From: an uncultured Gemmataceae bacterium
GTDB lineage: Bacteria; Planctomycetota; Planctomycetia; Gemmatales; Gemmataceae
Length of the DNA stretch: 64,000 nucleotides
Assembly: GCA_963750165.1 (NCBI GenBank)
Contig: CAVVPN010000011.1
Location: 736,001 to 800,000, forward strand
Reading direction: 5' to 3'
The position numbers were made by a program, and so were the translations under genes. Shown in pieces: positions 1,199-61,182 of the stretch. Every line of letters starts with the position of its first letter. Position 1 is the stretch's first letter. The notes beneath the pieces were generated by a model, which was not told where the DNA came from, did no database searches, and was given only the letters and a program-made list of their open reading frames with translations.

Positions 1199-1317
1199 AC
1201 GCAGCGTAATCATTTCCTTGGCAGGATCGACCTCAATGCGGACCTCAGTTCTGGTCACCTCCAAGATGCGTAACGTCACGTTGCCGGGAACACTCACCGC
1301 ACTGCCTTTGCCCACCA

Positions 1318-3422: not shown

Positions 3423-4658
3423 TTAACGCGGCCTGGCATCCGCCCCGGCGGCCGCGAACATGGCCATGAAAAAGGAAATGTACACAAACCCAACAATCCC
3501 ACCCACCACCAGGACGATCACCGGTTCAATAATCACACTGAGCCGGCGGATCGCGTTTTGCAATTGACTCTCATGGAATTTGGCGACTTCATCAAGCACC
3601 TCATCCAGGCTGCCGGCCGACTCGCCGACCGCCACCATGCGCGTCAACAGCGGCATGAATGCGCCCGGCGTCGCCAACGGCAGGGCAAGACTGCCGCCTG
3701 CCAGTACCGTTTGCCGGGCGGCGGCGACGCGACTGCCAAGGTAACGGTTGCCATACGTCGCTTCCACGGTGCGCAGCGCCTCAACCAGGGTGATGCCGCT
3801 GCGCAACAAGACGCCCAATCCGTGCCCAAACTGAGCCGTGGCGGACAACCGCAGCAGGTTCCCAAAAACCGGCAGTCGCAGCAGCACGCGATCCATCACG
3901 AAACGACTGGGAGACCAGAGGTATAACGTTATTAGTAACCCTGTCAAGGCGGCTATGCCCACGGCCACGGGCAGTGCATACGCCTGCACCGCATTGGAAA
4001 TGTCCAGCAGCAGCTGGGTCATTGGCGGTAACTTGCGACCCAGGGCGGACAGGAAAACCTGGAGTTTCGGAATCACGCTGACCGTCATGAAGATCGACAC
4101 ACCAATGGCGGCGATCAGCACAATGGTCGGGTAGGCGAGCGCGGTAATGAGGTGCGTCTTCAACAGCCGCCGACGTTCCAGGGCATCGGCTGCTCGACTG
4201 ACCACCTGTTCCAGTGTGCCCGTCTGTTCACCAACGCGGACCAGCTCCACGACCAGGTGCGGGAAACAGCGGTGCTCGCGCATGGCATCCGCGAGGCTGG
4301 AGCCTTGCTGAATCTTCTCGGCCACCGCTTCCCAGACCAGGCGCATGACGCTGCGGCGCGCGTACTCCGCGGCCGTTTTTAACGTCATGAGCAAGGTTAG
4401 CCCGCTGCGCAGCATGACCGCCATTTGTTGCAAACTGAGTTCAACGTCGAGCGACGACGGCGGCAACCACGTCAAGGGGTTGAGACGCGGGAGCAGGTCG
4501 CCCAGTCCCGGTGAGGCGGCCCCAGCGGGCCGGACGTCCAGGACGAGCCAGCCGCGCTGGCGCAGCGTATTCACCAGCGCCGCCGCGGAGGGCGACTCCT
4601 CGGTGCCGCGCTGCGGTTGGCCGGCGCTGGTTCGAGCGGTGAAAACGAAGATCGGCAT
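3423..4658 (-). CDS. pilC: Type II secretion F / PilC platform protein
   Basis: Two GspF repeats (VGEQTGTL, VGESAGSLDE), ALAYP and IIEP motifs, three TM segments. Confidence 0.95.
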   Translation of the reverse strand: MPIFVFTARTSAGQPQRGTEESPSAAALVNTLRQRGWLVLDVRPAGAASPGLGDLLPRLNPLTWLPPSSLDVELSLQQMAVMLRSGLTLLMTLKTAAEYARRSVMRLVWEAVAEKIQQGSSLADAMREHRCFPHLVVELVRVGEQTGTLEQVVSRAADALERRRLLKTHLITALAYPTIVLIAAIGVSIFMTVSVIPKLQVFLSALGRKLPPMTQLLLDISNAVQAYALPVAVGIAALTGLLITLYLWSPSRFVMDRVLLRLPVFGNLLRLSATAQFGHGLGVLLRSGITLVEALRTVEATYGNRYLGSRVAAARQTVLAGGSLALPLATPGAFMPLLTRMVAVGESAGSLDEVLDEVAKFHESQLQNAIRRLSVIIEPVIVLVVGGIVGFVYISFFMAMFAAAGADARPR

Positions 4659-4682
4659 AGACCTTCACCGATAAAGTCAAGC

Positions 4683-42911: not shown

Positions 42912-42984
42912 GGACAGATAGCTCAGCTGGTAGAGCGAAGGACTGAAAATCCTTAGGTCGCCGGTTCGATCCCGGCTCTGTCCA
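42912..42984 (+). tRNA. tRNA-Phe(GAA)
   Basis: Acceptor GGACAGA/TCTGTCC, D arm AGCTCAGCTGGTAGAGC, anticodon arm AAGGA-CTGAAAA-TCCTT, T loop GGTTCGATCC; CCA not encoded. Confidence 0.97.
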
Positions 42985-42994
42985 CTCCTCTAAG

Positions 42995-43106: not shown

Positions 43107-43387
43107 CAAGCCCCACCTGGCGGTCATCCGCTCCGACAGTTCAGGCTTTCCCCCGCCGCGCAGCGGCGGCCGGCCGCAGGCCGGGGCGTAGCGCTGCAGC
43201 CAGGGCGTGCCCGGCTCGGCTGGAGGGAAACCAAGCAAGCAAGTTAGCGCTGGGTAATTAAATATTAAATCGAGGATTATTGTTGAAATTGACGCAAGAG
43301 GTTATACAATAGGAACTTAGTGCGGGAGAGGTGTTGGTAGCACCCCTCCCGCGGAACCACCAGTTCAACGTTTCGAGGGTCCAACTG

Positions 43388-43876
43388 ATGGCCACTTCCC
43401 AGGGTACGCGCGCGCCGCGGAAACGTCAATCGAAGAAGGGCCGCAGGCCGGGCGACATCCGCCAGGCGGCCGGGTTGCAAGGGCAACCACCGGCACCCCA
43501 ACTGGAACCGACGCCAGCGCCGGCGACCACACCGCAGGCGCCGGCAACCCCACCTGCGAAAGCACAACACCCCCTCGCCCTGCACCCCCAAAAGGCCGGC
43601 CACTTCAAAACCTGGCTCATGACCGTGGAAACCGGTTGGCTCGTCTCCGGGATTCCGACCGATCTCGGCCGCATGCCCAACGCCTGGAAGTTGCAGCGCT
43701 ACGACGGCCAGGCCACCCATCACGTCCATGAGTTCGAGTCCGCGGGCGGGCCGGTCATGATTTGCGATTGCGGCGAGGCGGTCATCAAGAGCGACGGGTT
43801 CAACTGCTCGCCCTGCGACCATGTGAAAATGCTGCACGCGCTCCGCCAACTGCTCGGCCACCAGGCGGAGGGCTGA
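43388..43876 (+). CDS. SWIM-like zinc-finger protein
   Basis: Basic/Pro-rich N-terminus; C-terminal ICDC-x(13)-PCDH. Confidence 0.62.
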   Translation: MATSQGTRAPRKRQSKKGRRPGDIRQAAGLQGQPPAPQLEPTPAPATTPQAPATPPAKAQHPLALHPQKAGHFKTWLMTVETGWLVSGIPTDLGRMPNAWKLQRYDGQATHHVHEFESAGGPVMICDCGEAVIKSDGFNCSPCDHVKMLHALRQLLGHQAEG

Positions 43877-43879
43877 GCC

Positions 43880-44182
43880 ATGAAACTGCGACACGCAACC
43901 ATCGTGCGGCGCTTGCCCAGCATTCTGCAGCGCGGCTTGCTGTGTTCCCGCAGCCGGGGCCGGCGGAAGGTCGTTTGGCTGCACACGCCGAACAAGACCG
44001 GCTGGGCGACGTTGCACACCGTCAAGCGCCACGGTGGACGCGTTGAGGCGGTCGTTGTGGTCGAGGTGAACGTGCCGCGCAGCTGGCTGCGACGGTCCCG
44101 CAAGGGGCTGTGGTATTGCATCCACGATGTGCCGGCCGACCGGGTTCGTCAGGTTCGGACGTTCGGCGAGATGGCGGCTTGA
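43880..44182 (+). CDS. Minimal ADP-ribosyltransferase-fold protein (Tpt1/KptA/DarT-like motifs)
   Basis: LRHAT...SILQRGL...VWL...VVVEV...WY..HDVP; GGAGG RBS. Confidence 0.6.
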   Translation: MKLRHATIVRRLPSILQRGLLCSRSRGRRKVVWLHTPNKTGWATLHTVKRHGGRVEAVVVVEVNVPRSWLRRSRKGLWYCIHDVPADRVRQVRTFGEMAA

Positions 44183-44376: not shown

Positions 44377-44600
44377 GAGCGTTGCGCAGCGCAGGTCCCC
44401 CAGGTTGATTCACGCAAACCTGTCAAGCCCCAGAAGGCCCAGCCCGGAACTGGAATTTTGGTTTTGGCCGTCCTTCGGTAGACCTGCAACCCGTCTGACG
44501 AGGCCAAAACCAAAATTCCGCATTCCCCGGGCTGGTCCCTCATGGGGGCTTGACGGGTTTGCAGCAATGCACCTGGGGGACCGGAGCGAAGCAACGCCTC
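44377..44600 (+). other. ~224-nt rod-like imperfect inverted repeat (ncRNA or ssDNA structure)
   Basis: Nested paired blocks GCGTTGC/GCAACGC, GGTCCCCCAGGT/ACCTGGGGGACC, GCAAACCTGTCAAGCCCC/GGGGCTTGACGGGTTTGC, CCAGCCCGG/CCGGGCTGG and GGAATTTTGGTTTTGGCC/GGCCAAAACCAAAATTCC. Confidence 0.75.
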
Positions 44601-44900: not shown

Positions 44901-46082
44901 ATGGCGAAGACACGAAAGTGCAAAGTCGTGGTTGACGGGGCCTTCCAGGAGGCTACTTTCCACCAGTTCCAAAAACAGATCGTCCACGGGAGCGACAACG
45001 AGCCGCGAGAGCGTACGGTCGCCGTCGTGGAGTTGAGGAACGGCAAGTTGGTGAACTTCGAGCCGACCAATGTCCGGTTCCTGGACGAGCCTCCAGAGGA
45101 TGACCACGAACACGAAGGCCAGAGCGTCGGGAGCGAGGTCATGACCGGCCGCGATCTACTTGTGAAGTTGGAGACGTTCAAGTCAATCCTGGTCGCACGG
45201 GCGCGGGGCGAAACGCCGCGCGACGACGAGTACACCGCGCTGCGCCGCGAACTGGTTGCCAACCCCGCGATCAAGCAGGCGCTGCCGTCATTCGTCATCT
45301 CCTGTCGCACGGTGCAGGAGTTCTGGAGCTTCATCCAGCCGAAGTTCTCGACGTACAAGGCGCGAACAGACTTCCTCCAGCTGGAGTTCGAGCCGATCCT
45401 GACCGCGCTGGAGAACGACACCACCCCCAATTTGGGGGTCGGCGACCTGTTCCGCCATCAGTTCCCAGCTGGGCTGCCGTTCGGGCTCACCAAGCCGCAC
45501 GTCGTGTTGAAGCCGCAGAGCGGGACGCAGGTGTTCCAGTTCGAGGACGCGGCGGACGTCGGCGTGATCCGTAACGGCGCCTACCCGGGCCTCACCTTCG
45601 CCGGGCTGCAGGCGGCGGTAAGCGGCACGCCCGTTGCCCGCACGAAGCTGGACGAGAAGCTGGTCGCGCTCATCCAGACCGACTACGAGAAGACGTTCTT
45701 CCGCCAGTACGCCACGACCTACGCGATGATCACCACCGACGTGCCGGTGCTCGTACCGCAGGCTTGGATCCAGTGGCACTCGCTGAAGAAGGACGACCTC
45801 CGTGCCGCCGGCTCGTCGTACGCCGCGGATCTCTACCGGGTTGACTTCGTCGCATTCTGGAAGAACCGGCGCTTCGCCATCCTCATCGATGACATCAGCC
45901 ATTACGCGGTTAAAGGGTCCGGCCGATGGGACGCCAACGAAACACAGTACTCCAACCGCCTCAAGGAAGATCGCAAACTCCGCAAGGAGGGCTGGGACGT
46001 GTTCAGGGTGAGCAACTGGGAGATCCGCAGCGGCGGCCTGCCTGAGATACTCGCCGACTTACGAGAGTTTCTCGGGTTCTAG
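44901..46082 (+). CDS. Abortive-infection-type protein with C-terminal Vsr/DUF559-like endonuclease
   Basis: Helical domain EYTALRREL..LPSFV..CRT..FWSFI..KFSTY resembling Abi protein N-termini; C-terminal YRVDF..AILIDDISHY..EDRKLRKEGWDVFRVSNWEI. Confidence 0.72.
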   Translation: MAKTRKCKVVVDGAFQEATFHQFQKQIVHGSDNEPRERTVAVVELRNGKLVNFEPTNVRFLDEPPEDDHEHEGQSVGSEVMTGRDLLVKLETFKSILVARARGETPRDDEYTALRRELVANPAIKQALPSFVISCRTVQEFWSFIQPKFSTYKARTDFLQLEFEPILTALENDTTPNLGVGDLFRHQFPAGLPFGLTKPHVVLKPQSGTQVFQFEDAADVGVIRNGAYPGLTFAGLQAAVSGTPVARTKLDEKLVALIQTDYEKTFFRQYATTYAMITTDVPVLVPQAWIQWHSLKKDDLRAAGSSYAADLYRVDFVAFWKNRRFAILIDDISHYAVKGSGRWDANETQYSNRLKEDRKLRKEGWDVFRVSNWEIRSGGLPEILADLREFLGF

Positions 46083-46222
46083 CCACGCCCTCAGGATCGC
46101 AGACAGAACCGCGTCTTCGATGTATCATAGCGCTGGCGGGGATAGGGCGTCGGCCGAAACCCGGAAAGCCTTGCCGGTTTCCCCACACTTCTCCTGCAAG
46201 GCGGCCGAAAGGTATCGGTGCA

Positions 46223-49156
46223 ATGTTGGAATATGACCGTCTTTCGGGTCGGATTCTATCCGCACTGACGGGCGAACTACTTCCGGACACATCTTGGCAC
46301 GTTCCCGAGCGCAAAGAACAGCGCATTGCGATTGCGGTCTGTGACGCAACGGGCATGACGCCCGAACGCTGGGACCGCCTGACCAAAGACGAGAGGATAC
46401 CGTGGCTGCACAAAACCTTGAAGGCCCTGGAGAAGCAACCCGCGCCCAATGCGTGGATCGAAGGCGATGACCTACCAGTCTATCGTCCGGAACCGGCCTG
46501 CGAACCACTCGCGGACGCTTCTCGCGTGGCTGGTCCAGCGGACCGCGCCGGGCGTTCGCAACTTGCTTCTCACCTCGTCGAATGTCAGCGCCGTCTAGCT
46601 GACTTTCGCACTCGACATGATTACATTGCCGTCAGGTGCGCTCTACTGCGGTTGGAAGGGGCCGGCGGGACGGTCCTTTACGACCATCCTTTCGCCCGCA
46701 TCCTGACCAATCGTGCTTTTTTCGACCGTCTGTCGGTGAGCCACGGGGAGACGTTCAACATCGCGTTCTTTCCGTTGGTGGACAGCATCGAGGCGGAGCG
46801 GATACCCGCCGCGCTGGCCTCAGTTGAAACAATCACAGGCGAAATTCACCCCCTACTGGGGGAGCTACCCAAGCCGGTTCGCGAACGCTTGCGGCTGCCG
46901 GACAGCGATAACTGGTGGCGTAGCGTCTTCCATCTCGCCTGGCATTTCCCCCGGCCATTCCTGAAGGCCACTCGCCGCCGGTTACTGTCTAAGGACGGTG
47001 CGCCCGCCGGCATCAGCGATGAGACTTTCGTGCAGTTGCACGGGATGGGCGGACGAAGCGACTTGCTGCCCGGCTTGATTTACAGCGAGATGGCACACGA
47101 CCTTTGTACGTGCTCAGAGGCCGCCGTGGCGGTCGTCCTCGACGCCTTGGAAAAGCACGCCCAAGCAGGCACCCCCGCCGGTTCGGAAGTACCAAGACTG
47201 TCGGCTGGGCAGCGACGGACCTTCGACCAGTTGCGGGCCGAGTTCGAGGCCGGAGCACAGATGCCGATGGCCTTTGAATGCAAGTTGCTCAAACTGGCCG
47301 ACAGCTTCGAGTCCCCGCCGGCGATCGAATGGGTGGGCCTGGAGGTTGGTGGATGCGTCGAGCGCTTCCTGACCCTCTCGAAGCTAAACGACCAGCAGGA
47401 GATTATCCAGATTCGCGGTCCGGCGACGGAGTGGTTTTGCCAAGTTGCCGAACGGGCTGGGAACGCGCTGCCCCCCTGGATTCCGGATTTCCCCCTGCTG
47501 TTTGATGACCCTCAACTCGGGTTCGGCGGACCGCGTCCCGTGATGAACCGCGACGCCTGCGAACGCTGGATAGGCTTTGTTTTCGCCACAATCAAACAGC
47601 ACGCCCCCGAATCCCTGCGCGTCACCTGGGGGACGCCAATGGGGCCGCTCTCCTACGGGTTCGCCACCCTCGAACGGAATCTGTGCGGCGCGTCCGTCCT
47701 TGCCATCGACCTGGCCCGGCTTACAACCGCAGCGGCAGAGACGGCGAAGCAGTTCCGAGAGAACTGCTCGCCGTTTACGGTTCCGTCGTTGGAAGAACAG
47801 GGATTCCAGTGGACCGAAGAGGTGCCCCCGCCTACACCGCCCGTAAACTATACGCTGGGTAAGTTGGTCGAGGGCCTACGGCTCTTCGCCGAAGATTACC
47901 AGCTTGTAGAAGAGCGAATCCGTGAAGAACACCCCATCACCGCAAAAGGATCCCGGTTTCGGCTCGGCGCGCACGTCAGCGGGGCGCGGGCCTGTCTGCT
48001 GGCCATCCCAGGTTTCGCTGAGTTGCGGGCGTGGGCGCGATCTGAGTGGGATGAAGAGATCAGTTTCGCGGTGAGCCGGCGTATCGTGGATGCGCTGGTT
48101 ACGCGATCCAATGGCCGCCTGTCCGCTAATGCCGCCGAAGGCTTGAGCCTGGCGGAGGCTGTCGCCCGTCTATCCGCCCTGCCCAGAGAGTCTCTAGAGG
48201 AGGACGAAGTGGATTCGAGTAGTAACGAGTTGCCCGCGCCGGTCGATCGGGAAACCAGGCAGCGAGTCATCTACGAGTTGGAAAACTGGAAACGAATCCT
48301 ATACGCCCCGCCGGCTGAAAAGCCGGCTCTCCAAAAGTACGTCGAGTTGACGAGCCGCATCATAGCCTGGCGTGGCCACCACGCCCCCCGGTTCGACGTA
48401 ACTTCGTTGGATGAAGTGCGGGGAATACTGGTACGGCGTGCCACTGGTGAACAGACGCCAGAGGAAGAACTACGGACGGTGGGGGAGAGAGCAGCAAGGG
48501 CCTGCGACCGCATCAAGGACTGGCTCCAAACAGTCGAGGGCCTCCTGGAAGAAAAGACCGCTGGCTACAGGCCGAGTACCGAAATGAGCCGCATCGTCTT
48601 CGAGCTAAACAATCCTCCCAACGACTCGCCCGCGAAGCCGGGCGAGCTGGTAGAAGTACCCAACCCCTTTGACGAAGCTCGCCGGTCGTGGCTGCCGATT
48701 CTGAAGGAGCATATCAGCAAAGTTCCCGAGCTGACTGGGGACCTGACCGAGGAGAAGCTTCGGCAGTGTCTATGGCGGAGATTTAGGGTGCGGCCGACGC
48801 AGGATCTTGACGCTGAACAAATGGTGGAATTGTTTGAAGGCGAACAGACTGGCCAACCTGACGAGGGGCCGGCTCGAACAGCCCAGAGACTGGAACATCA
48901 CCGGCTTGACGCCTTGTTGACGTCCCTGCTCTCTGCCTTCGACCGCAACTCGATGGAGCAGATGCTTCGCATGAAGATGAGCATCCGTCTCGAAGAAGAA
49001 GTCCCACATGGTGGATTTCGAGACCAGGTATTCTGGCTGATCGAGTGGGCAGAAGAAAACGGCCGGGTCGATGAACTGGCGCGCATGGCTCTCGAAACGA
49101 GGCCCCAAAGCGCAGAACTTCGGGCGTATGTCGAGGGCTTGCAGGACAGAGGCTGA
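46223..49156 (+). CDS. 977-aa protein of unknown function with C-terminal EAD1-like domain
   Basis: Long ORF; last ~85 aa LLSAFDRNSMEQMLRMKMSIRLEEEV..FRDQVFWLIEWAEENGRVDELARMALETRPQSAELR. Confidence 0.82.
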   Translation: MLEYDRLSGRILSALTGELLPDTSWHVPERKEQRIAIAVCDATGMTPERWDRLTKDERIPWLHKTLKALEKQPAPNAWIEGDDLPVYRPEPACEPLADASRVAGPADRAGRSQLASHLVECQRRLADFRTRHDYIAVRCALLRLEGAGGTVLYDHPFARILTNRAFFDRLSVSHGETFNIAFFPLVDSIEAERIPAALASVETITGEIHPLLGELPKPVRERLRLPDSDNWWRSVFHLAWHFPRPFLKATRRRLLSKDGAPAGISDETFVQLHGMGGRSDLLPGLIYSEMAHDLCTCSEAAVAVVLDALEKHAQAGTPAGSEVPRLSAGQRRTFDQLRAEFEAGAQMPMAFECKLLKLADSFESPPAIEWVGLEVGGCVERFLTLSKLNDQQEIIQIRGPATEWFCQVAERAGNALPPWIPDFPLLFDDPQLGFGGPRPVMNRDACERWIGFVFATIKQHAPESLRVTWGTPMGPLSYGFATLERNLCGASVLAIDLARLTTAAAETAKQFRENCSPFTVPSLEEQGFQWTEEVPPPTPPVNYTLGKLVEGLRLFAEDYQLVEERIREEHPITAKGSRFRLGAHVSGARACLLAIPGFAELRAWARSEWDEEISFAVSRRIVDALVTRSNGRLSANAAEGLSLAEAVARLSALPRESLEEDEVDSSSNELPAPVDRETRQRVIYELENWKRILYAPPAEKPALQKYVELTSRIIAWRGHHAPRFDVTSLDEVRGILVRRATGEQTPEEELRTVGERAARACDRIKDWLQTVEGLLEEKTAGYRPSTEMSRIVFELNNPPNDSPAKPGELVEVPNPFDEARRSWLPILKEHISKVPELTGDLTEEKLRQCLWRRFRVRPTQDLDAEQMVELFEGEQTGQPDEGPARTAQRLEHHRLDALLTSLLSAFDRNSMEQMLRMKMSIRLEEEVPHGGFRDQVFWLIEWAEENGRVDELARMALETRPQSAELRAYVEGLQDRG

Positions 49157-49186
49157 AACGCCGACGTCGAAACACAGGGAGACGGT

Positions 49187-50257
49187 ATGCATCTGCCAAG
49201 TACTCAATTCCAAGAATTGCACGATGCCATCCGTGACGCCTATACGGTGAATCGGTTGGAGCAGATGCTGTATACTCGGATGGGGAAGCGTTTGGACGAG
49301 ATTTCCCTCGACACCGACTTCAAAACCGTCGTCTTCAAGTTACTGCGCGACGCCGAGATGAACGGCTACGTCCTGCCCTTGATCGTTGCGGCCAGGCAAT
49401 CGAATCCCGGCAACGAGAAGCTGCAGGGGATCGCCCAGCAGTTCGGGTTGTCGGCGGCGTCCGCGGCGCTGGAGAAGAAGGTCCGGGCTGACCTCCCTTT
49501 TCTGGACATCGCCTTGTGGCGGCGTCGCCTGGGGGAGATCGAAACTCGTGTTTGCAAGGTGGAAGTCGGGACGGGATCAGGGACCGGTTTCCTCGTCGGG
49601 CCTGGCACCCTTATCACCAACTACCATGTCCTGAAGGGGGTGATCGAAGGAACGGTGAAGCCCGCCGATGTCGCCTTTCGTTTCGACTACAAGCGAAATG
49701 AAGACGGGAGCATGATCAACCTCGGCACGGTCTTTCGCATGCCCGCCAGCAACTGGTTGATTGATTCCAGTCCGTATAGTGATGTCGATCTGATGCCGGA
49801 ACCGGGAGCCATGCTCCCTGGCCTGGACCAACTGGATTACGCTTTGGTCCGCGTCGAGGGAGCGCCGGGGGACCTCCCGGTCAACCACTCGAAGGCGGAA
49901 CACGGCGCCCCCGTCCGGGGGTTTATCAAGGTTCCGGGTGCCGGGATCAAACTCGCCATCGACGCGCCGATATTCATCGTTCAGCACCCTGAGGGGGCCC
50001 AGTTGTCACTGGCACTGGACACGAAGGGAGTGACAGAGATAAACGCCAACAAAACCAGGGTTCACTATCGCACGAACACGGAGGGCGGCTCCTCCGGATC
50101 CCCCTGCTTCGACGTGAACTGGGATCTGGTGGCATTGCACCATAGCGGGGACCCGAAAGCCAACCCGCTGGCTCTGGCCCGCTGGAACCGCGGTATCCCC
50201 TTTGACCTTATCGTGCAACAGATCAGAGGTCGGGGGCAGGGGGCCGCGTTAGGGTAG
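49187..50257 (+). CDS. EAD1 + trypsin-like serine protease
   Basis: N-terminal EAD1-like (AIRDAY..LEQML..LDEI..VVFKLL..AE..G..LI.AAR..NPGNEKL); catalytic triad TNYHV, LDYAL, GSSGSP; AGGGAG RBS. Confidence 0.9.
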   Translation: MHLPSTQFQELHDAIRDAYTVNRLEQMLYTRMGKRLDEISLDTDFKTVVFKLLRDAEMNGYVLPLIVAARQSNPGNEKLQGIAQQFGLSAASAALEKKVRADLPFLDIALWRRRLGEIETRVCKVEVGTGSGTGFLVGPGTLITNYHVLKGVIEGTVKPADVAFRFDYKRNEDGSMINLGTVFRMPASNWLIDSSPYSDVDLMPEPGAMLPGLDQLDYALVRVEGAPGDLPVNHSKAEHGAPVRGFIKVPGAGIKLAIDAPIFIVQHPEGAQLSLALDTKGVTEINANKTRVHYRTNTEGGSSGSPCFDVNWDLVALHHSGDPKANPLALARWNRGIPFDLIVQQIRGRGQGAALG

Positions 50258-51567: not shown

Positions 51568-51645
51568 CCCAGCGAAACCCGTCCCGGCGAAACCCCCAAA
51601 AAGCTCTGGAAAAGCGAGGGTTTCACCGGGAGGAGTTTCCCTGGG
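51568..51645. repeat. Iteron-like repeats, candidate replication origin of the element
   Basis: CCCAGCGAAACCC, CCCGGCGAAACCC, inverted GGGTTTCACCGGG and a degenerate fourth copy around an A-rich spacer. Confidence 0.55.
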
Positions 51646-53047
51646 AGGGGTGGATCATTTGCAACCGCCGAGTTGGGCGGCCCCCTTTGCTGGTCGCGGG
51701 AATCTGTTCCCAGGTGGCCTTGCCAGCATCGACCAGCCCCTGCAGGGCCGCGTCGGCGAGTTCAGCGGTCGGGTATCGTTCTTTCTGAAGGCTCTGAAGT
51801 TCGGCCGCGCGGATGCCGCCCCCGCGCTTTTGGATGTACTCCTCCAGGGACCAGGGTTTCTTGGCGGCGGCCGGCTGGGCGAGGAGGGCGTACAATCGCC
51901 GGGCCTCGGCGGCGAACCAGCGGCAGAGGGTGATGCCGGCCTCCACGCTTTCCAGGCCGACCGGGACCAGGTCAGACTGGTTGCGGGCCACTTGCCCGGC
52001 GACGTGGTGGACCAAGGCCAGGCGGGCGGCGGCCCCCTCGAACTTGGCCAGGGCCGCTTGCATGGGGCCGTCGGCGTTGATCTGCTCCCCGGCCCATTCG
52101 TTGTAGAACCGGGCCCAACTCGCCTGGGCCTCGTCGTCCAGCAACAAGGCGTGGGGTTGGCTCCCCTCGGCGTTGGGGTCGAAGTCGAGGTCGAGGAGCC
52201 GTTCCAGGAGCTGCTTGAAAGCGTTGCGGACCTCGGGGGCCACCACTGCTTTCGACCATTGCTTGCGTTGCGGGGGCGGCATGGCCATAAGGAGCCGGGC
52301 CGGCAAACCGGCTTCCAGGTTCTCCGGGGTCAATGCCCGTTGCAGGGTGCCAGGCTGAATGGTCCCGGTGACCGACACCACGGCGCGGCGGACGCGGATG
52401 TGGGGAGGCTTCGCCGCCTTCCGGTCCACTTTGATGCCCCGGCCGCCGTGGATTTCGAGCCAGCTGTGCAGGTCGCTGCCACGGCTCCGGTAGCGCTGGA
52501 AAGAGTCGAACCAGGTGGCCAGTTCGTCGCGCGCCAGCAGGAGGCCGCGGGGGTTTTTCTGCAACAGGACCGCCACCTGTTCGATGGTGATGTCGCCCAT
52601 GAGGACGCGCCGGGGGGCGGGCGGGTCGGTGTCGTCGTCCCCGGCCCGGCCGTGTTCCTGCTCGAATTGCTGGTACAAGGCGTCCTCGATCTCCGCCAGG
52701 CAGAGCAGCGACTGGTCGAGGGCCGGCGACTTGAGTTGGCCGCTATCAGCCACGGTCACCGCCCAGAGGATGGCCGGCTCCTGCCAACCTTCCTTGAGTT
52801 GGAGAACGCGCGTCGCCCCGATCGCCGAGGCGGTGACCGCCAGCATGGGGAGTGCCACCAGGGAGACGTCGCAGCCGAGCGCCCTGGCTGCCTGGACGGC
52901 AAAGGCGGCGAGGGGCTCGGGTAGGGCTTCGACGGGGAAGGGGCGATAGCCTGACGGCGCTGGAATCGGAATGCTGGTGATCGGCACGGCCCCGGTGTTG
53001 ACCGGGCTGGCCTTGAATTGGGGCCGAGTGATTGCTTTACTGGACAT
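51623..53047 (-). CDS. DUF3987/YfjI-family replication-associated P-loop protein
   Basis: PFPVEALP, ADSGQLKSP, DITIE, RDELATWF, GTIQP and ARLALV motifs. Confidence 0.88.
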   Translation of the reverse strand: MSSKAITRPQFKASPVNTGAVPITSIPIPAPSGYRPFPVEALPEPLAAFAVQAARALGCDVSLVALPMLAVTASAIGATRVLQLKEGWQEPAILWAVTVADSGQLKSPALDQSLLCLAEIEDALYQQFEQEHGRAGDDDTDPPAPRRVLMGDITIEQVAVLLQKNPRGLLLARDELATWFDSFQRYRSRGSDLHSWLEIHGGRGIKVDRKAAKPPHIRVRRAVVSVTGTIQPGTLQRALTPENLEAGLPARLLMAMPPPQRKQWSKAVVAPEVRNAFKQLLERLLDLDFDPNAEGSQPHALLLDDEAQASWARFYNEWAGEQINADGPMQAALAKFEGAAARLALVHHVAGQVARNQSDLVPVGLESVEAGITLCRWFAAEARRLYALLAQPAAAKKPWSLEEYIQKRGGGIRAAELQSLQKERYPTAELADAALQGLVDAGKATWEQIPATSKGGRPTRRLQMIHPSQGNSSR

Positions 53048-53105
53048 GGCGAATCCTCAATATGGCCGGCTGGGCGAGTAACGGCGCTCCACCGGCCGTT
53101 TCATT

Positions 53106-53369
53106 TCACCCCTGCGGCGAACAGTTCACGGCTTCCCCCTGGCCGTCAGCCGGGGCGGCGGTATCCGGATCGGGTTTGGCTTCGATCGTGGAGCGCAGCA
53201 CCAATGCCTCGACGGCCTTCCAGTTGATCCGGCGCGACCGGCCCAACTTCACGAAGGCCAGCTGGCCCCGGTCCATCATCAAATACAATTTGGCGACGGA
53301 AAGCCGCAGGTAGGCGGCCGCCTCTTTCACGGTGGCCAACCCACGTCCAACCATTTCCAGGGTTTCCAC
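53106..53369 (-). CDS. xis: Excisionase-family HTH protein
   Basis: LATVKEAAAYLRLSVAKLYLMMDRGQL..VKLGRSRRI; AAGGAG RBS before GTG. Confidence 0.88.
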   Translation of the reverse strand: METLEMVGRGLATVKEAAAYLRLSVAKLYLMMDRGQLAFVKLGRSRRINWKAVEALVLRSTIEAKPDPDTAAPADGQGEAVNCSPQG

Positions 53370-53415
53370 GGAATCTCCTTGTGTTTGTCAGAGTGCCCGG
53401 GTAGAATGGAGTCTA

Positions 53416-53437
53416 TTAGAGTCACAAAAGACTCTAA
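53416..53437. promoter_or_regulatory. Operator palindrome in the divergent xis/repressor switch
   Basis: TTAGAGTC-ACAAAA-GACTCTAA. Confidence 0.65.
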
Positions 53438-53506
53438 AAGAATCTTGGCAGCTGATGGGAACTGTGACAAGCCTGGAAAGGCAAGACGACGAGAAAGGAA
53501 GGAGAG

Positions 53507-53899
53507 ATGGGTAAGAAAAATCCGAAGGCAACGAAGGCGCGGAGCGGACAAATCACACTGCGGGTTTCCCCGGAACAGCATGGGGAGTTGGTCGCGATTG
53601 CGGATGGGCTGGGCCTCGATGTCAACGGGTTGCTCCGGCTGATGATCGGCAGGACCATTGAGCACTTCCGGCTGGAAGCGATGCTGTTGCAGGAACAAGG
53701 GCAAGAGAACCTGAACCTGCTCAACCTCTGGAAGCAAGATAATCCGGGCAAGCCGATTCGTGAGTTTTGGGACCACTACTGGACGTACTGGGCGGCCAAG
53801 CGCGGGAAACAGGCATGGGAGTCAGGCCGCGGCTTCAACTTTGAGACGGCCGAGCAGCTGGCCCGGCAAGCGGCCGGGGGAAAGGAAGGTGAATCATGA
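53507..53899 (+). CDS. RHH (HicB/Arc-like) DNA-binding protein, probable repressor
   Basis: SGQITLRVSPEQHGELVAIADGLGLDVNGLL; ATGA overlap with integrase. Confidence 0.75.
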   Translation: MGKKNPKATKARSGQITLRVSPEQHGELVAIADGLGLDVNGLLRLMIGRTIEHFRLEAMLLQEQGQENLNLLNLWKQDNPGKPIREFWDHYWTYWAAKRGKQAWESGRGFNFETAEQLARQAAGGKEGES

Positions 53900-55065
53900 G
53901 CAACCGCAAGCGGCGTGGGCGCGGCGAGGGGAGCATTGAGGTGCGCCCCAACGGCAAGTTTCGGGCGGTCGTCAGTGCCGGGAAAGACCCGGTCACCGGG
54001 AAGCGCGTGAAGATCAAACGCGATTTCGACACCAAGAGCGAAGCGCTCGCTTTCCGGGACGAGGCGCTGCGCCAGCTCCGGGCCGGCGTGGCGCCGACCA
54101 CGAACCGGGCCATCCTGTCGGACTGGCTCAAGCAATGGCTGGAGAAGGTCAAGCCGCAGCTGGCGACGCACAGTTACCTGGCCTACGAACGCGACGTGAA
54201 CAAGGCGCTGATTCCGCACCTGGGCAACCGGCTGTTGCGCAACCTGAACGCGCTGCAGATCGAAGCGGCCTATGCCAAGATGCAGGAAGCGGGCATCTCG
54301 GCCAAGATGGTTCGCAAGGCCGCGGTGACGCTCGGCGTGGCGCTGCAGTACGCGGTGAAACACAAATACCTGGCGATGAACCCGGCCCGGATCGCGGACA
54401 AGCCCCGGGTGCAGCAACGGGCCTCCACCGAGTTGCGGGTACTCGACCCGGATCAGGTCCGGCGCTTTCTCGACGAAGCGGCCGCGGATCGGTTCCACGC
54501 GCTGTTTGTGCTCTGGCTGGACAGCGGCGCCCGCGAGGGCGAGTTGTTCGCGTTGCACTGGCCCGACATCGATTGGAACGGGTCGGCGATCACGATTACC
54601 AAGGCCCTTGAGGAAGCCAAGGGGCGGCACCAGCTGAAAGAGCTGAAGACGGAGAAAAGCCGCCGGCGGATCATCATTGGCGCATATGCGCTCGACGCGC
54701 TCGCCGAGCACCGCAAGCGGATGCTGGCGGAAGGGCGGGACGTGCGAACGGGGCTCGTCTTCTGTGACAGCCAGGGCGGCTTTCTCCGGTCCAGCAACTT
54801 CCAGCGGCGACACTTCGACCAGATTCTTGCGCGTGCCGGGTTGCCGGACATTCGGCCCTACGATCTGCGGCACACCTGCGCCAGCCTGCTGTTGCTGGCG
54901 GGCGAGGATACGAAGGTCGTGAGCGAGCGGTTGGGGCACTCGACCACGCGCCTCACGCAGGACACCTATCAGCACGTGCTGCCAGGGATGCAGGCGCGGG
55001 CGGCGGCGAAAATCAACGCGATTCTGCAAGGAGCGGGGGCCGCTGCGGGCAAGAAGGCCGAATGA
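53896..55065 (+). CDS. int: Tyrosine integrase
   Basis: RGRGEGSI arm-binding N-terminus; SGAREGEL, LKT, YDLRHT, LGH and TYQH catalytic motifs; adjacent to attR. Confidence 0.96.
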   Translation: MSNRKRRGRGEGSIEVRPNGKFRAVVSAGKDPVTGKRVKIKRDFDTKSEALAFRDEALRQLRAGVAPTTNRAILSDWLKQWLEKVKPQLATHSYLAYERDVNKALIPHLGNRLLRNLNALQIEAAYAKMQEAGISAKMVRKAAVTLGVALQYAVKHKYLAMNPARIADKPRVQQRASTELRVLDPDQVRRFLDEAAADRFHALFVLWLDSGAREGELFALHWPDIDWNGSAITITKALEEAKGRHQLKELKTEKSRRRIIIGAYALDALAEHRKRMLAEGRDVRTGLVFCDSQGGFLRSSNFQRRHFDQILARAGLPDIRPYDLRHTCASLLLLAGEDTKVVSERLGHSTTRLTQDTYQHVLPGMQARAAAKINAILQGAGAAAGKKAE

Positions 55066-55208: not shown

Positions 55209-55258
55209 GAAGGACTGAAAATCCTTAGGTCGCCGGTTCGATCCCGGCTCTGTCCACT
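55209..55258 (+). repeat. attR, duplicate of tRNA-Phe 3' 50 bp
   Basis: GAAGGACTGAAAATCCTTAGGTCGCCGGTTCGATCCCGGCTCTGTCCACT identical to 42937-42986. Confidence 0.96.
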
Positions 55259-56728: not shown

Positions 56729-59700
56729 ATGAATGCCGATCAGGTCCGTGCGATCTTCATCGAACTGGTGGCCCAGGTGCCCCCCGAGCAGTGGGACGCG
56801 CGCCTCGCCGAACTCGCAGGGGACGACGAGGAGGTGCGCGGCAAGGTGGCGGCGCTGCTGGCGGCGCACCGTAAGGCCGACAGCTTCCTCGAACGGCCCG
56901 CGGCTCCCCTCGCCGGCACCGTTGATGAACCCCCGGCCGCCGCCGTGCCCCCCGCCAGGGGCGCCGCCCCGGAGGAAACCCCCGGGACCGTGCTGGCCGG
57001 CCGCTACAAGCTGGTGGAGGCCATCGGCGAGGGCGGCATGGGGACCGTCTGGATGGCCCAGCAGACCGCGCCGGTCAAGCGTTTGGTGGCGGTTAAGCTC
57101 ATCAAGGCGGGGATGGACAGCAAGCAGGTGCTGGCCCGCTTCGCGGCGGAGCGGCAGGCGCTGGCGCTGATGGACCACCCCAACATCGCCCGGGTTTTCG
57201 ACGCCGGCACCACCGAGAGCGGCCGGCCGTACTTCGTCATGGAACTGGTCAAGGGCGTGCCGCTCACCGCCTACTGCGACCAGCAGCGCCTGACGCCGCG
57301 GCAGCGCCTGGAGTTGTTCGTGCCGGTGTGCCAGGCCATCCAGCACGCGCACCAGAAGGGCGTCATCCACCGCGACATCAAACCCAGCAATGTGCTGGTG
57401 GCGCTGTACGACGGCAAGCCGGTGCCCAAGGTGATCGATTTCGGCATCGCCAAGGCGACCGGGCCGCAGTTGACCGACCACACGCTGGTCACCGGCTTCG
57501 GCGCCATGGTCGGCACGCTGGAGTACATGAGCCCCGAGCAGGCCGAGCGCAACCAGCTGGACATCGACACGCGCAGCGACGTCTACGCGCTCGGCGTGCT
57601 GCTGTACGAGTTGCTGACGGGCACGACGCCGCTGCACCGTAAGCGCCTGAAGCAGGCGGCGGTGCTGGAACTGCTGCGCATCATCCGCGAGGAGGAACCC
57701 CAGCGGCCGAGCACGCGGTTGAGTGAGTCGAAGGAGTCGCTGCCGTCGATCTCGGCGCAGCGGCAGATGGAGCCTGCGAAGCTAACGCGGTTGGTGCGCG
57801 GCGAGCTGGACTGGATCGTGATGAAGGCGCTGGACAAGGACCGCAACCGCCGCTACGAGACGGCCAACGGCTTCGCGCTGGAGGTGCAGCGCTACCTCAG
57901 CGACGAGCCGGTGCTGGCCTGCCCGCCGTCGGTGGGCTACCGCTTCCGCAAGTTTGCGCGGCGGAACAAGGGTAGTCTCGCGGTGGCCGCCGGGTTGTGC
58001 CTGGCCGTGACGGTGGCGCTGGTCGCCTCGGTGGTCGCGTTCTTCCTGGTGAGCGACTCGCGGGACCAAGAGCGGGAGCAACGCCTCAAGGCGGTCGAAC
58101 TGGCCGAGCAAAAGAACCTGCTGGCCATCAAGGAAGAAGGGGCCAGAAAGGAGTCCGACCAGCGCCGCATCCTGGCGGAAAAACTGGCCGAGGCCAACAA
58201 AATGCTCGCCAAGGAGGAGGCGAATGCCCGCGCGGACGCCGACAAGCGCCGCCGGGAAGCCGAAGCCGCCGAAAAACAACGGGCCAAACAACTGCTGCGC
58301 GCCGAAAGCCTCCTGAACATCGTCCACGTTACTCAAGCCAACGACTACCTCCAGAAATTTGACCTCGTCGGCTGCCGCCTGGCCCTGGACGAGACGCGCT
58401 GGGATTTGCGTGGCCCGGAATATGGCTACCTCGTCAAGCAACTGGACAAAAAAGCGCGAACCTTGTTCGGCCACACGGGCGCGGTCAATTGCCTGGCGTT
58501 AGCGGCGGACGGCAAGCGCCTGTTCTCGGGTGGCGGTTCCAAGGACGGCACCATCAAGGTGTGGGACGTGGAGACGGGCAAGGAAACCCTGACCATGCTC
58601 GGCCACACGGACGGGGTCTTTAGCTTGGCGTTGTCGGCGGACGGCAAGCACCTGTTCTCGGGCGGAGGTGATAAGACCATCAAGGTGTGGGACCTGGAGT
58701 CGGGCAAGGAAACCCTCACCCTGAACGGCCACACGGGCTCGGTCTTGAGCCTGGCGTTAGCAGCGAACGGCAAGCGCCTGTTCTCGGGCGGCGGCGACAG
58801 GACCATCAAGGTGTGGGACCTGGAGTCGGGCAAGGAAACCCTCACCCTCCGCGGCCACCCGGGTCCGGTCTTTATCCTGGCGTTAGCGGCGGATGGCAAG
58901 CGCCTGTTCTCGAGTGGCTACGACAGCAGCAGCACCGTCAAGGTGTGGGATCTGGAGGCGGGTAAGGAAATCCTCACCCTGCGCGGCCATAGGGGCACGG
59001 TCAGGAGCCTGGCGTTGTCGGCAGACGGCAAACGCCTGTTCACCGGGAGTGCGTCCGTTCAAACTCCCGGGGAGATCAAGGTGTGGGACCTGGAGGCGGG
59101 CAAGGAAACCCTCACCCTCCGCGGCCACACGGAGTGGGTCACTTGCCTGGCGTTGTCGGCGGACAGCAAGCGCCTGTTCTCGGGCGGTGGCCTCCAGGAC
59201 GGCACCATCAAGGTGTGGGACCTGGAGACGGGCAAGGAAACCCTGACCATGCTCGGCCACACGGACGGGGTCTTTAGCTTGGCGGTGTCGGCGGACGGCA
59301 AGCGCCTGTTCTCGGGCGGAGGTGATAAGACCATCAAGGTGTGGGACCTGGAGGCGGGCAAGGAAGCCCGCACCCTCCGCGGCCACACGGGCACGGTCAG
59401 GAGCCTGGCGTTAGCTGCGGACGGTAAACGACTGTTCTCGTACGGGGTCGGCTTTCAGCACGACACCATCCAGGTGTGGGACCTGGAGGCGGGCAAGGTA
59501 GCCCTGACCCTGAACACGGCCCCCAAATTGTCAGGGGCACTTGCCTGGCGTTGTCGGCGGACGGCAAGCGGCTGTTCTCCGACATCGGCGGCCACAGCAT
59601 CAAGGTGTGGGACCTGGAGGCGGGCAAGGGACCCCGCACCCTGCGCGGCCACACGAAAGGGGTCACATGCTTGGCGTTGTCGGCGGACGGCAAGCGCCTG

Positions 59701-61182
59701 GTCTCGGGCGGCGGCGACAGGACCTTCAAGGTGTGGGACCTGGAGGCGGACAAGGAAACCCTCACCCTGCGCGGCCACACGTTCGGGGTCACTCGCCTGG
59801 CGTTGTCGGCGGACGGCAAGCGACTGGTCTCGGGCGGCGGCGACAACACCATCAAGGTGTGGGACTTGGAGGCGGGCAAGGAAACCCTCACCCTTCGCGG
59901 CCACACGGGCCCGGTCAGGTGCCTGGCGTTAGCGGCGGACGGCAAGAGGCTGTTCTCGGGTGGCCAGGATAATACCATCCGGGTGTGGGACCTGGAGGCG
60001 GGCAAGGAAGAATGCACGCTCCGCGGCCACACGGGCGAGGTCTTTAGCCTGGCGTTGTCGGCAGACGGCAAGCGGTTGTTCTCGGGCAGCAACGACAAGA
60101 CCATCAAGTTGTGGGATCTGGAGGCGGGCAAGGAAGCCCTCACCCTGACCGGCCACACGGGCGCGGTCAGGAGCCTGGCGTTAGCTGCGGACGGTAAACG
60201 ACTGTTCTCGGGTGGCGGCCCCATCGGTAACGGCCCCATCGACGGCACCATCAAGGTGTGGGACCTGGACCCGGGCAAGGAAGCCCTCGCCCTCCGCGGC
60301 CAAACGGGCGGAGTCTGCGACCTGGCGGTGTCGGCAGACGGCAAGCGGTTGTTCTCGGGCGGCGGCGACGACACGATCAAGGTGTGGGACCTGGAGGCGG
60401 GTAGGGAAGCCCTCACCCTGCGCGGCCACACGGGCCGGGTCAGGAGCCTGGCATTGTCGCCGGACGGCAAGCGGCTGTTCTCGGGGGGCGGGGGCCTTGG
60501 CAAGCCCGCCGAGATCAAGGTGTGGGACCTGGAAGTGGGCAAGGACACCCGCACCCTCCGCGGCCACACGGGCGAGGTCAACAGCCTGGCGGTGTCGGCC
60601 GACGGCAAGCGGCTGTTCTCCGCCAGCGACGACAAGACCATCAAGGTGTGGGACCCGGAGACGGGCAAGGAAGAACGCCCCCTGACCGGCCACACGGGCG
60701 GGGTCTGGTGCCTGACGGTGTCGGCCGATGGCAAGCGGCTATTCTCGGGTAGCAAGGACAAGACCATCAAGGTGTGGGACCTGGAGGCAGGCAAGGTAAT
60801 CCGCACCCTAACCGGCCACGCGGGCGGGGTCAGGAGCCTGGCGCTGTCGGCCGACGGTAAACGGCTGTTCTCGGGCAGCGACGACAAGACCATCAAGGTG
60901 TGGGACATGGAGGGGGGCAAGGAACCGCTGACCCTGCGCGGCCACACGGACGGGGTCAATCGCCTGGCGTTGTCGGCGGACGGCAAGCGGCTGTTCTCGG
61001 GCGGCGACAGCACCATCAGGGTGTGGGACCTGGAGACGGGCAAGGAAGCCCTGACCCTGCGCGGCCACACGGACAGGGTCTGGAGTCTGGCGCTGTCGGC
61101 CGACGGGAAACGGCTGTTCTCGGGCGGCGGCCCCAACGACAACACCATCAAGGTGTGGGATTTAAAGCAGTGGGTCCCCTGA
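56729..61182 (+). CDS. Ser/Thr kinase - TM - coiled coil - 21 WD40 repeats, frameshift near 59538
   Basis: GEGGMG, VAVK, HRDIKPSN, DFG and YMSPEQ; one TM; repeats continue in frame 59476-61182. Confidence 0.92.

Follow-up and report, generated by a model that had tools for sequence, protein, structure and literature searches.

Two adjacent genes of an uncultured Gemmataceae bacterium, here called A and B, raise the question of what kind of protein the large product of A is, and whether it governs the protease encoded just downstream. A sequence-only reading of the window (the whole stretch of 64,000 nucleotides analysed here) had proposed that ~890 residues of unknown sequence form a new sensor or scaffold, which recruits and activates the protease. 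The two genes do share one direction and lie 30 bp apart, both on the forward strand, and the similar domains at the end of A and the start of B are both EAD1 (PF19955), scoring 37 bits in A and 59.6 bits in residues 1-86 of B against a curated cut-off of 24.2 in Pfam. The two copies are identical at 23 of 71 aligned residues (32%), and they are the only EAD1 matches in the source genome (93% complete). The protease domain of B matches Trypsin_2 (residues 132-317, 61.3 bits) and its triad is intact, as had been read: SplB motifs align with H147 and S303, and D217 was assigned from its motif. Apart from EAD1, A has no Pfam match at E<=0.1, and the absence of a Walker A motif was confirmed by motif scans of the whole protein, neither the strict [AG]x4GK[ST] nor the loose Gx4GK pattern being found. 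The features of the locus are collected in the table.

Features of the A/B locus and of the element that carries it (positions in the window).
Feature	Position	Strand	Basis and remarks
tRNA-Phe	42912-42985	+	overlapped by the left att core (42937-42986)
Left att core	42937-42986	+	50-nt, 100% direct repeat of the right core
Neighbouring cargo gene, 393 aa	44901-46082	+	nuclease-like by eye; no Pfam match
int-alpA-like leader RNA	46135-46202	+	directly 5' of gene A; Rfam RF02996, below gathering score
Gene A, 977 aa	46223-49156	+	ORF; mosaic core M1-M2-M3-M4-M5, then C-terminal EAD1
M1, aa 1-105 of A	46223-46537	+	small N-terminal module; phmmer match blocks
M2, aa 112-510 of A	46556-47752	+	constant alpha/beta domain of the family, ~400 aa; phmmer blocks and AF2
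M3, aa 515-660; M4, 666-772; M5, 773-885	47765-48877	+	reshuffled between relatives; phmmer blocks
EAD1 of A, aa 889-973	48887-49141	+	Pfam; slot holds PNP, TIR, patatin, calcineurin or HTH-like tail in relatives
Gene B, 356 aa	49187-50257	+	ORF; EAD1 aa 1-86 and trypsin-like protease aa 132-317
DUF3987 helicase-like gene	51623-53047	-	Pfam/PHROGs; element's own core (51623-53899)
HTH_17 excisionase-like gene	53106-53369	-	element's own core
HicB-like small regulator, 130 aa	53507-53899	+	element's own core
Tyrosine integrase	53896-55065	+	Pfam and PHROGs
Right att core	55209-55258	+	50 nt, repeating the 3' part of the tRNA without mismatch

The 885 residues of A that precede EAD1 are a mosaic of five modules, as delimited by phmmer match blocks. 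M1 also occurs at the N-terminus of other proteins, several of them with HTH-like tails. AF2 gave a confident model of M2 from an 86-row alignment (pLDDT 95.7, pTM 0.92), for which fold searches returned no clear match; nor did M2 match any enzyme family or fold, CARF and Rossmann included, in the profile library and fold searches. Its secondary-structure pattern suggests an internal duplication, weakly supported by hhalign (43% probability over 20 columns), so M2 possibly consists of two related halves. Its conserved polar residues are H237, H241, R251, R253, E267, Q271 and D280, that is, an HxxxH motif followed by R, R, E, Q and D residues which are kept in 29-34 of 35 distant relatives as well as in the full-length effector-tailed cases. 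A single-sequence AF2 run of the whole of A was uninformative (pLDDT 40), and weak ferredoxin-like matches led to a comparison with the TRADD-N (RRM-like) domain. Neither library nor fold searches matched the large region of A to a known core, and Pfam, NCBIfam and PADLOC profile searches, like the motif scan, gave no sign of a known GAP1, VMAP or STAND core.

The relatives of A are more informative. We counted 58 that are full-length, A itself excluded, and 43 of these carry no enzymatic tail, ending mostly in an HTH-like one; the HTH assignment is backed by tools, though weakly, in 16 of the 43 and was made by eye for the remainder, one tail type resembling an OmpR-type wHTH (TM 0.65-0.68, Atlas structure comparison). 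The other 15 bear effector or EAD tails. Pfam cut-offs are exceeded by 11 of them (four PNP, two TIR, two CHAT, one patatin, one Metallophos (calcineurin) and one EAD1 with a PNP-like domain), and the remaining four share a single unnamed, nuclease-like domain that by eye looks PD-(D/E)XK-like. Such tails match the PADLOC models for CBASS effectors, ThsB, CHAT and PDC and, below cut-off, the NCBIfam DS8/DS9 anti-phage models. M2-M5 are common to A and to proteins ending in PNP (P0152), TIR (P0002), patatin (P0156) and Metallophos (P0157). We take these proteins to share a constant core whose effector slot can be exchanged, since the nearest relative, P0152, is 83% identical across residues 1-887 of A and then has PNP fused directly in the place of EAD1.

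Tails have been exchanged repeatedly. On a FastTree phylogeny of M2 with 95 rows, 18 of them labelled effector and 40 of the 135 M2 matches being excluded for short coverage or short tails, the tail label requires 14 changes, at least eight of them forced by well-supported branches; one sister pair joins a TIR-tailed and a wHTH-tailed protein that are 80% identical. The effector fusions that we checked form singleton or two-member clusters, as would be expected of short-lived fusions. Members of the M family turned up only in a single bacterial family and in metagenomes, with no M2 relative in viral contigs, phages or plasmids, in a sample of 400 genomes from the phylum or in the set of proteins 1830-5000 residues long, and a further search of genome contigs returned no M2 locus. 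Our literature search found no description of it, and the family carrying M2 is in this sense undescribed; the architecture and neighbourhood source data of PMC7159879 could list such proteins.

Where downstream DNA is available, the next gene at 9 of 13 M2 loci encodes a primase, helicase or polymerase (eight called by Pfam, one of these weakly, and one by eye); the other four comprise one TIR-tailed gene, one tail-less gene and two fragments. Where context exists, relatives that lack such a tail are encoded just before the xis/primase genes of elements with an integrase. By gene order these proteins, 43 of 58 and so the bulk of the family, resemble regulators encoded by the first gene of a satellite-type element. 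DNA context is available for two of the 15 effector-tailed relatives (L026 and L030). Two fragmentary loci have the appearance of debris: at L088 a remnant of M5 precedes a patatin gene, and at L041 an Mrr-like frame ends in an M2 fragment.

The pair itself lies within a tRNA-integrated element, as the sequence-only reading had recognised; the tRNA-Phe gene, the direct repeat and the integrase were all located, and the element measures 12.3 kb. A and B are cargo, outside the element's own core. Its finding that such NTPase core genes are missing was likewise borne out, the 10 element ORFs scanned against Pfam giving no MoxR, vWA, GTPase, GAP1 or STAND match, and the element holds no HTH-tailed M protein. 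Ahead of A, the RF02996 leader match is full-length, with 31.6 bits (E 1e-4) against a gathering score of 35.8. Its loop at 46168-46174 is complementary to 46196-46202, a possible pseudoknot, and this loop/3' pairing is retained with changed letters in all three leader copies. Copies above the cut-off (37.1 and 41 bits) occur at L029, ahead of an M2 gene, and elsewhere in this genome, ahead of a wHTH-tailed gene between an integrase and xis/primase; such a comparison suggests the leader of A to be, by its family match, of the same kind as that in the first-gene slot of these elements. A promoter-like site at 46100-46128 was discarded as being at chance level (two found against 1.2 expected). 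The neighbouring 393-residue cargo protein has a single full-length relative (71%, in genome G420, beside an E1/ThiF-like gene identified by eye); since that genome has no A or B match, the neighbour was rejected as a partner and is probably not part of the A/B system.

As a conserved gene pair, the proposed coupled system did not hold up. No EAD1 or trypsin gene was found at 27 other M2 places, many of them on short contigs, and no M module within about 1.5 kb of 21 other EAD1-trypsin (B-like) loci; the A+B pair was seen once, here. The closest relative of B (58%) is also preceded by a gene of the form X-EAD1, with X differing from A. Both EAD1 copies are nearer to EAD1s of other proteins than to each other, that of A being 41% identical to the EAD1 of the L071 partner. 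Of the original claim of a new sensor or scaffold, what survives is a large region that matches no known core and carries an exchangeable effector slot; what does not is a conserved two-gene system.

The reading that we consider probable, though well short of secure, is that the sensor of a satellite regulator has been refitted with an EAD1/EAD1-trypsin effector cassette for a predicted role in abortive defence. A would then be a sensor of infection taken over from the regulators that planctomycete satellite-type elements encode as their first gene. M2, perhaps together with M1 and M3-M5, would sense a trigger, for which the likeliest candidates are a product of the helper phage and a small molecule tied to infection; in the ancestral form this sensing would govern whether the HTH tail binds DNA. 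In A, sensing would cluster or reshape the protein so that EAD1 is presented, EAD1-EAD1 contacts would gather B molecules and activate the protease, and B would cleave one or more host proteins, leading to abortive infection with the infected cell arrested or killed. Recruitment and activation of B by A are our inference. In its favour, comparison of the relatives shows, at the level of domain architecture, that the C-terminal slot of A is exchangeable (HTH-like, PNP, TIR, patatin, calcineurin, CHAT, nuclease-like, EAD1), and the genome's only two EAD1 matches sit on A and B; the primase-side gene order of the relatives and the EAD1 that stands in for PNP on an LmuA-like protein point the same way. 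Against it stand the single sighting of the pair, the 43 relatives without an enzymatic tail, the small clusters formed by the effector fusions checked, and the divergence of the two EAD1 copies, each closer to copies elsewhere.

The same observations could be accommodated without any sensing of infection, if the regulator gene, with its good promoter and leader, were a hot spot for recombination at which cargo effectors become fused, the M modules serving only to tag expression or to inhibit the effector from within, in the manner of a toxin-antitoxin pair. The strongly mosaic M family, the polyphyletic effector fusions on short branches, mostly singletons, the debris-like L088 remnant and L041 fragment, and the occurrence of the same effector cassettes on unrelated partners would all suit such passive capture or addiction. 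We nevertheless think it rather unlikely, as all the enzymatic tails identified belong to conflict-effector types, the junctions keep the frame and coincide with module borders, the M2 conserved residues are retained in full-length cases, and an identical PNP/EAD1 swap is seen on LmuA-like proteins beside LmuB.

Nor need proteolysis kill the cell: A might sense helper phage or stress and B cut either a repressor such as the HicB-like protein or its own partner A, so that the element excises or replicates while the cell is spared. A does seem to descend from the first-gene slot and to keep its leader RNA, and the element lacks an HTH-tailed M protein of its own. This reading is improbable, however, given that a repressor is not a plausible target for the sibling tails (PNP, TIR, patatin, phosphoesterase) and that B-like genes are present in 16 of 251 genomes of the family beside varied non-regulatory partners. 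Finally, M2 could itself be a metal-dependent or nucleotide-processing enzyme, which the HTH tail would direct to DNA in most members and which would work beside a second effector in the others. Its well-defined alpha/beta fold and its conserved HxxxH and R, R, E, Q, D residues point that way, but no enzyme family or fold was matched and the residues could equally well line a ligand pocket or serve the structure, which leaves an enzymatic M2 highly improbable.

Beyond this locus, a wider scenario can be drawn from the same comparisons, which we hold as possible but doubtful: satellite-type elements of planctomycetes would use modular receptors of unmatched fold to detect helper phages and to activate the elements' own genes, and on at least eight occasions such receptors would have been converted into stand-alone immune sensors by exchange of the DNA-binding tail for a killing module, in this case a plug-in EAD1/EAD1-trypsin cassette common to Lamassu. 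If so, new immune receptors would arise again and again from the helper detector of a parasite. The reading of A as a sensor would already link immune sensors to the regulators of satellite-type elements, suggesting where new sensors originate, and EAD-coupled systems would gain a core with neither an NTPase nor a known fold match. A and P0152, 83% identical up to the junction, with EAD1 and a separate protease in one and a fused PNP in the other, offer a near-controlled natural experiment, and the proposed EAD adaptor model is therefore directly testable.

Among known systems, those coupled by EAD1 come closest. In the available text of Kaur et al. (2020; PMC7159879), cores are defined by direct effector fusion versus EAD swap, and because of this the exchangeable slot of A has the pattern of a core: EAD1 lies on the terminus of A and on the adjacent effector, and relatives carry effectors fused directly in its position. 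GAP1-EAD1 systems with an EAD1-effector likewise have a C-terminal EAD1 on the core and a second on the neighbouring effector, and the effector classes fusible to EAD1-coupled cores are the same (PNPase, TIR, caspase/CHAT, trypsin, calcineurin, alpha/beta-hydrolase), as far as the accessible portions of PMC7159879 and PMC8195603 (Kaur et al., 2021) go. EAD1 had been called a Death-like adaptor; in the consulted part of Kaur et al. (2020) 'Death-like' applies to bDLD1/EAD3, with EAD1 a functional analogue. The same partial text reports a tendency of adjacent EAD copies to be mutual closest relatives, from which the present pair departs, the EAD1 of A matching that of the LmuA-like protein P0078 at 62 of 88 residues against 23 of 71 for B. 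Also in contrast to these systems, we found no MoxR-vWA, GTPase, STAND, NucA or EACC1 component and no clear TRADD-N domain here, and the core, an unmatched domain, more usually ends in an HTH-like tail as its output and occupies the regulator slot of a mobile element. The MoxR-vWA ternary systems (VMAP, iSTAND, iSTAND2, TERNS3) gave no Pfam, NCBIfam or PADLOC match in the element ORFs scanned, which also contain no GTPase gene; GAP1 was not matched in 133 + 46 relatives, and A has neither the Walker A motif nor a family match of STAND/Avs. System 3 of Kaur et al. (2020), as given in the excerpted text, pairs a NucA-type endonuclease with trypsin (PMC7159879); no NucA/Endonuclease_NS match was found in the 10 element ORFs (Pfam), so the pair is not NucA-trypsin.

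Other likenesses concern the sensor. Stl of the SaPIs is a satellite master regulator with a DNA-binding part and a variable part. The M family would resemble it as a satellite regulator whose variable part could sense helper phage, Stl repressors being switched by helper-phage proteins according to the text available of PMC5779228, and by this analogy we hypothesize that the M modules sense phage; here, however, the gene is co-oriented with xis/primase, the HTH-like part is C-terminal, and no relation of sequence or fold was apparent. CARF proteins, in the part of PMC11754643 consulted, fuse a sensor to an HTH/wHTH or to a toxic effector, so that they and the M family alike combine one constant domain with two output classes, transcription-factor-like and effector; M2 differs in having no CARF/Rossmann match and in residing in satellite-type elements rather than CRISPR loci. 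For the protease, the accessible text of PMC12799240 describes pairs of a trypsin-like protease and a gated MBL nuclease in Hachiman, AVAST, Lamassu and DRT, and trypsin-like proteases fused to LmuA in some systems. A protease downstream of an oligomerising sensor would parallel the arrangement proposed for A and B, although no MBL nuclease gene was found here and the protease would be coupled through EAD1, not fused. As for Lamassu itself (LmuA effector and LmuB SMC sensor), A has no similarity to LmuA, the element yielded no SMC/LmuB gene, and six element proteins scanned with PADLOC matched neither LmuA nor LmuB. Yet P0078, an LmuA-like protein (PADLOC E 1.6e-25), ends in an EAD1 that is 69% identical to that of A, standing in for the PNP with which its three relatives in this bacterial family end, each preceded by LmuB; Lamassu thus shows the same PNP/EAD1 slot swap as A and P0152.

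Comparative evidence gives good support to A as a predicted new core for a known principle, in which an effector-associated domain (EAD) on a core and another on an effector couple the two. The layout claimed by a sequence-only reading was confirmed: A and B are separated by 30 bp, carry EAD1 at both facing ends, the protease triad of B is intact (H147, D217, S303), and a motif scan of A found no P-loop motif. The tRNA-integrated element proposed to hold them was likewise borne out: it spans 12.3 kb and is bounded by tRNA-Phe and a 50-nt repeat without mismatches. Its right end carries an integrase, a DUF3987 gene, an excisionase-like gene and a small regulator resembling HicB. The source genome (93% complete) has no EAD1 match besides those of A and B, and no entry of Pfam, PADLOC, NCBIfam or PHROGs matched residues 1-885 of A. 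Gene content and an Atlas taxon line suggest that the host is a Gemmataceae-like planctomycete.

Features of A, B and their surroundings (window positions in nt, genes and RNA on the + strand; protein positions in aa)
Feature	Position	Basis or content
Gene A	46223-49156	977 aa
Gene B	49187-50257	356 aa
M1	A 1-105	phmmer match blocks
M2	A 112-510	phmmer match blocks
M3	A 515-660	phmmer match blocks
M4	A 666-772	phmmer match blocks
M5	A 773-885	phmmer match blocks
EAD1 of A	A 889-973	over Pfam cut-off
EAD1 of B	B 1-86	over Pfam cut-off
Trypsin_2	B 132-317	Pfam
int-alpA-like RNA	46135-46202	31.6 bits, below 35.8 cut-off
SWIM-like module	43331-44182	181-aa and 100-aa proteins
Inverted repeat	44379-44597	53-nt arms 79%, inner 18-nt arms perfect
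Cargo gene	44901-46082	393 aa
Kinase-WD40 gene	56729-59932, 59476-61182	two frames, by eye

Several neighbouring features were seen in passing. A third, 44-nt att-core copy of tRNA-Phe lies 57 kb farther along the source contig, beyond the window (G000:C11:848425-848468), so a second element probably follows in tandem. The SWIM-like module joins a protein with a C-x-C...C-x-H motif to a small one that had no library match and that we take, by eye, to resemble an ADP-ribosyltransferase fold; the small gene has eight copies in the genome, seven with a SWIM-like ORF upstream. Just past this module stands a long nested imperfect inverted repeat with no Rfam match. The cargo gene combines an N-terminal PHROG-matched piece, a presumably AbiJ-N-like helical domain (phrog_23253) and a C-terminal region that is nuclease-like by eye, and its 71% relative in another genome, G420, adjoins an E1/ThiF-like gene (by eye). 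The Ser/Thr kinase-WD40 gene, seemingly split, stands after an ECF sigma-like gene.

A phmmer search of A against 1.84 billion representatives gave 427 matches at E<=1e-3, and match blocks among the best 150 of these, the matches listed, delimit five modules upstream of EAD1. M2 is the constant one, and usually forms the N-terminal start of the proteins that carry it. Within the host's family 16 of the 251 other genomes carry it, as do 11 metagenome loci; none was found in 15 genomes of the order's other family, in 400 genomes sampled from the phylum, or in the viral, phage or plasmid collections searched.

Beyond these modules the C-terminus is exchangeable. Searching a 90%-clustered database twice yielded 58 relatives other than A itself (537-1710 aa), 11 of them with a C-terminal domain over the Pfam cut-off (PNP in four, TIR in two, CHAT in two, and one each with patatin, a calcineurin-like phosphoesterase, and EAD1 followed by a PNP-like domain). 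Four of the 58 have a common tail, by eye a PD-(D/E)XK-like nuclease, named by no library searched. The other 43 lack an enzymatic tail: 16 belong to tail clusters for which the HTH evidence is weak (LacI, HTH_11, or an Atlas TM of 0.65-0.68 to OmpR-type wHTH), and the remaining tails are mostly HTH-like by eye, a few being truncated. One protein, P0168, was removed from the HTH clusters since its clustering rested on M3 residues. Among the phmmer matches listed, one further relative shows a weak alpha/beta-hydrolase match, and a Pfam scan of 133 of the 150 found five EAD1 proteins that resemble A through EAD1 only. A tail of ~190 aa, nuclease-like by eye, is common to the C-termini of P0004, P0033, P0048, P0163, P0178 and P0179; Pfam, PADLOC and NCBIfam gave it no name in those of the proteins that were scanned. 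The cleanest comparison is with P0152, a relative with 83% identity over A residues 1-887 and then PNP in place of EAD1. A FastTree tree built from 95 M2 domains (18 rows labelled effector) requires 14 changes of that label, at least 8 of them forced by well-supported branches; shuffled labels needed 16.8 on average, and 13 of 500 shuffles were as low as observed. One sister pair at 80% identity has a TIR tail on one member and a wHTH tail on the other. Tail swaps have therefore been repeated and recent.

Seventeen M2 loci were examined for neighbours. Where downstream DNA was present (13 loci), a primase, helicase or polymerase gene came next at nine, eight by Pfam (one weak) and one by eye; of the other four, one is a TIR-tailed gene that follows a type IIG restriction gene, one has no tail and two are fragments. 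At the nine, an integrase and a tRNA were often nearby, with a small terminase gene at one, and several M3-only and M5-only relatives take the same first-gene slot. Directly before A stands an int-alpA-like RNA, a kind that the available part of PMC12370729 merely lists. Copies over the cut-off lie upstream of an M2 gene (L029:7896-7966) and on the source contig (G000:C11:922657-922727), the latter with an integrase on one side and, on the other, a wHTH-tailed gene, after which come genes that by eye are xis-like and primase-like; the other 27 loci scanned gave no match. In all three copies a loop has its complement in a purine-rich 3' stretch close to the ribosome-binding region, and this complementarity, kept despite changed letters, suggests a pseudoknot that controls how the first gene is translated. 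Another type of leader was seen by eye, 100-170 nt before the M2 gene, at L026, L028, L031, L032, L035, L038 and L039, with a -10-like hexamer and then a long GC-rich hairpin up to just before the start codon. From tail and position, first-slot M-family proteins would be regulators, and we read A as probably a first-slot gene of a satellite-type element, relocated with its leader into another element's cargo.

The EAD1-trypsin cassette moves independently of M modules: of 251 genomes from the host's family 16 carry B-like genes, and at none of 21 B-like loci does an M module lie closer than about 1.5 kb. The closest relative of B (58%) is preceded by a different X-EAD1 gene at locus L071, a candidate for another EAD1 core. 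There (875-4776, - strand) proteins of 893 aa and 484 aa (the second X-EAD1), showing no family match besides EAD1, precede the EAD1-trypsin, and a serine-recombinase-like gene adjoins (by eye). The EAD1 closest to that of A (69% over 93 aa) ends P0078, a match to PADLOC LmuA; three relatives of P0078 from the host's family (L092-L094) lie downstream of LmuB and carry PNP at the C-terminus instead, so the PNP/EAD1 swap recurs on a Lamassu-type protein, P0078 being known from its protein alone.

We lean towards a sensor-adaptor-protease pathway for A and B. The M modules would detect a phage-linked trigger, EAD1 would be clustered, B would, as the EAD principle predicts, be recruited and activated via EAD1, and cutting of host proteins by B would abort infection. 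The new EAD1 core of the sequence-only reading stands on comparative grounds, and its coupling to B is a prediction. Counted against the pathway are that the pair was seen once, with neither EAD1 nor trypsin at 27 other M2 places (DNA there is often short contigs), that just 2 of the 15 effector-tailed relatives could be placed in their DNA context, that the effector fusions checked are singletons or two-member clusters, that the EAD1 domains of A and B are only 32% identical, and that no ligand came to light. Passive capture or addiction, by which the M modules would sense no infection, is unlikely, and proteolytic control of the element itself we consider more doubtful still. M2 residues H237, H241, R251, R253, E267, Q271 and D280 are conserved in 29-34 of 35 distant relatives, and the domain is predicted to be alpha/beta (pLDDT 95.7, pTM 0.92; 86-row alignment); its model had no clear match in four structure searches, which barely covered its second half. 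That M2 is itself an enzyme seems very improbable.

EAD coupling was defined by Kaur et al. 2020 (PMC7159879) and 2021 (PMC8195603), the available parts of which already describe cores that end in EAD1 and others that have no NTPase (NucA-trypsin, EACC1, TRADD-N). Of three sequence marks of such coupling the A/B locus shows two, EADs on a core terminus and the adjacent effector, and direct-fusion siblings; the adjacent EADs are not mutually closest. The locus falls outside each named core tested, TRADD-N aside, as had been claimed for the MoxR-vWA, GTPase-GAP1 and STAND cores. The literature covered gave no account of the M2 family; source data on architectures in Kaur 2020, outside that coverage, may bear on this. 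In Hachiman and AVAST, as the accessible text of PMC12799240 has it, trypsin proteases downstream of oligomerising sensors act through an MBL nuclease, which is absent from the A/B locus. CARF proteins, in what is available of PMC11754643, set the precedent of a single sensor whose output is either HTH or toxic. Stl repressors (PMC5779228) do so for satellite regulators that phage proteins switch.
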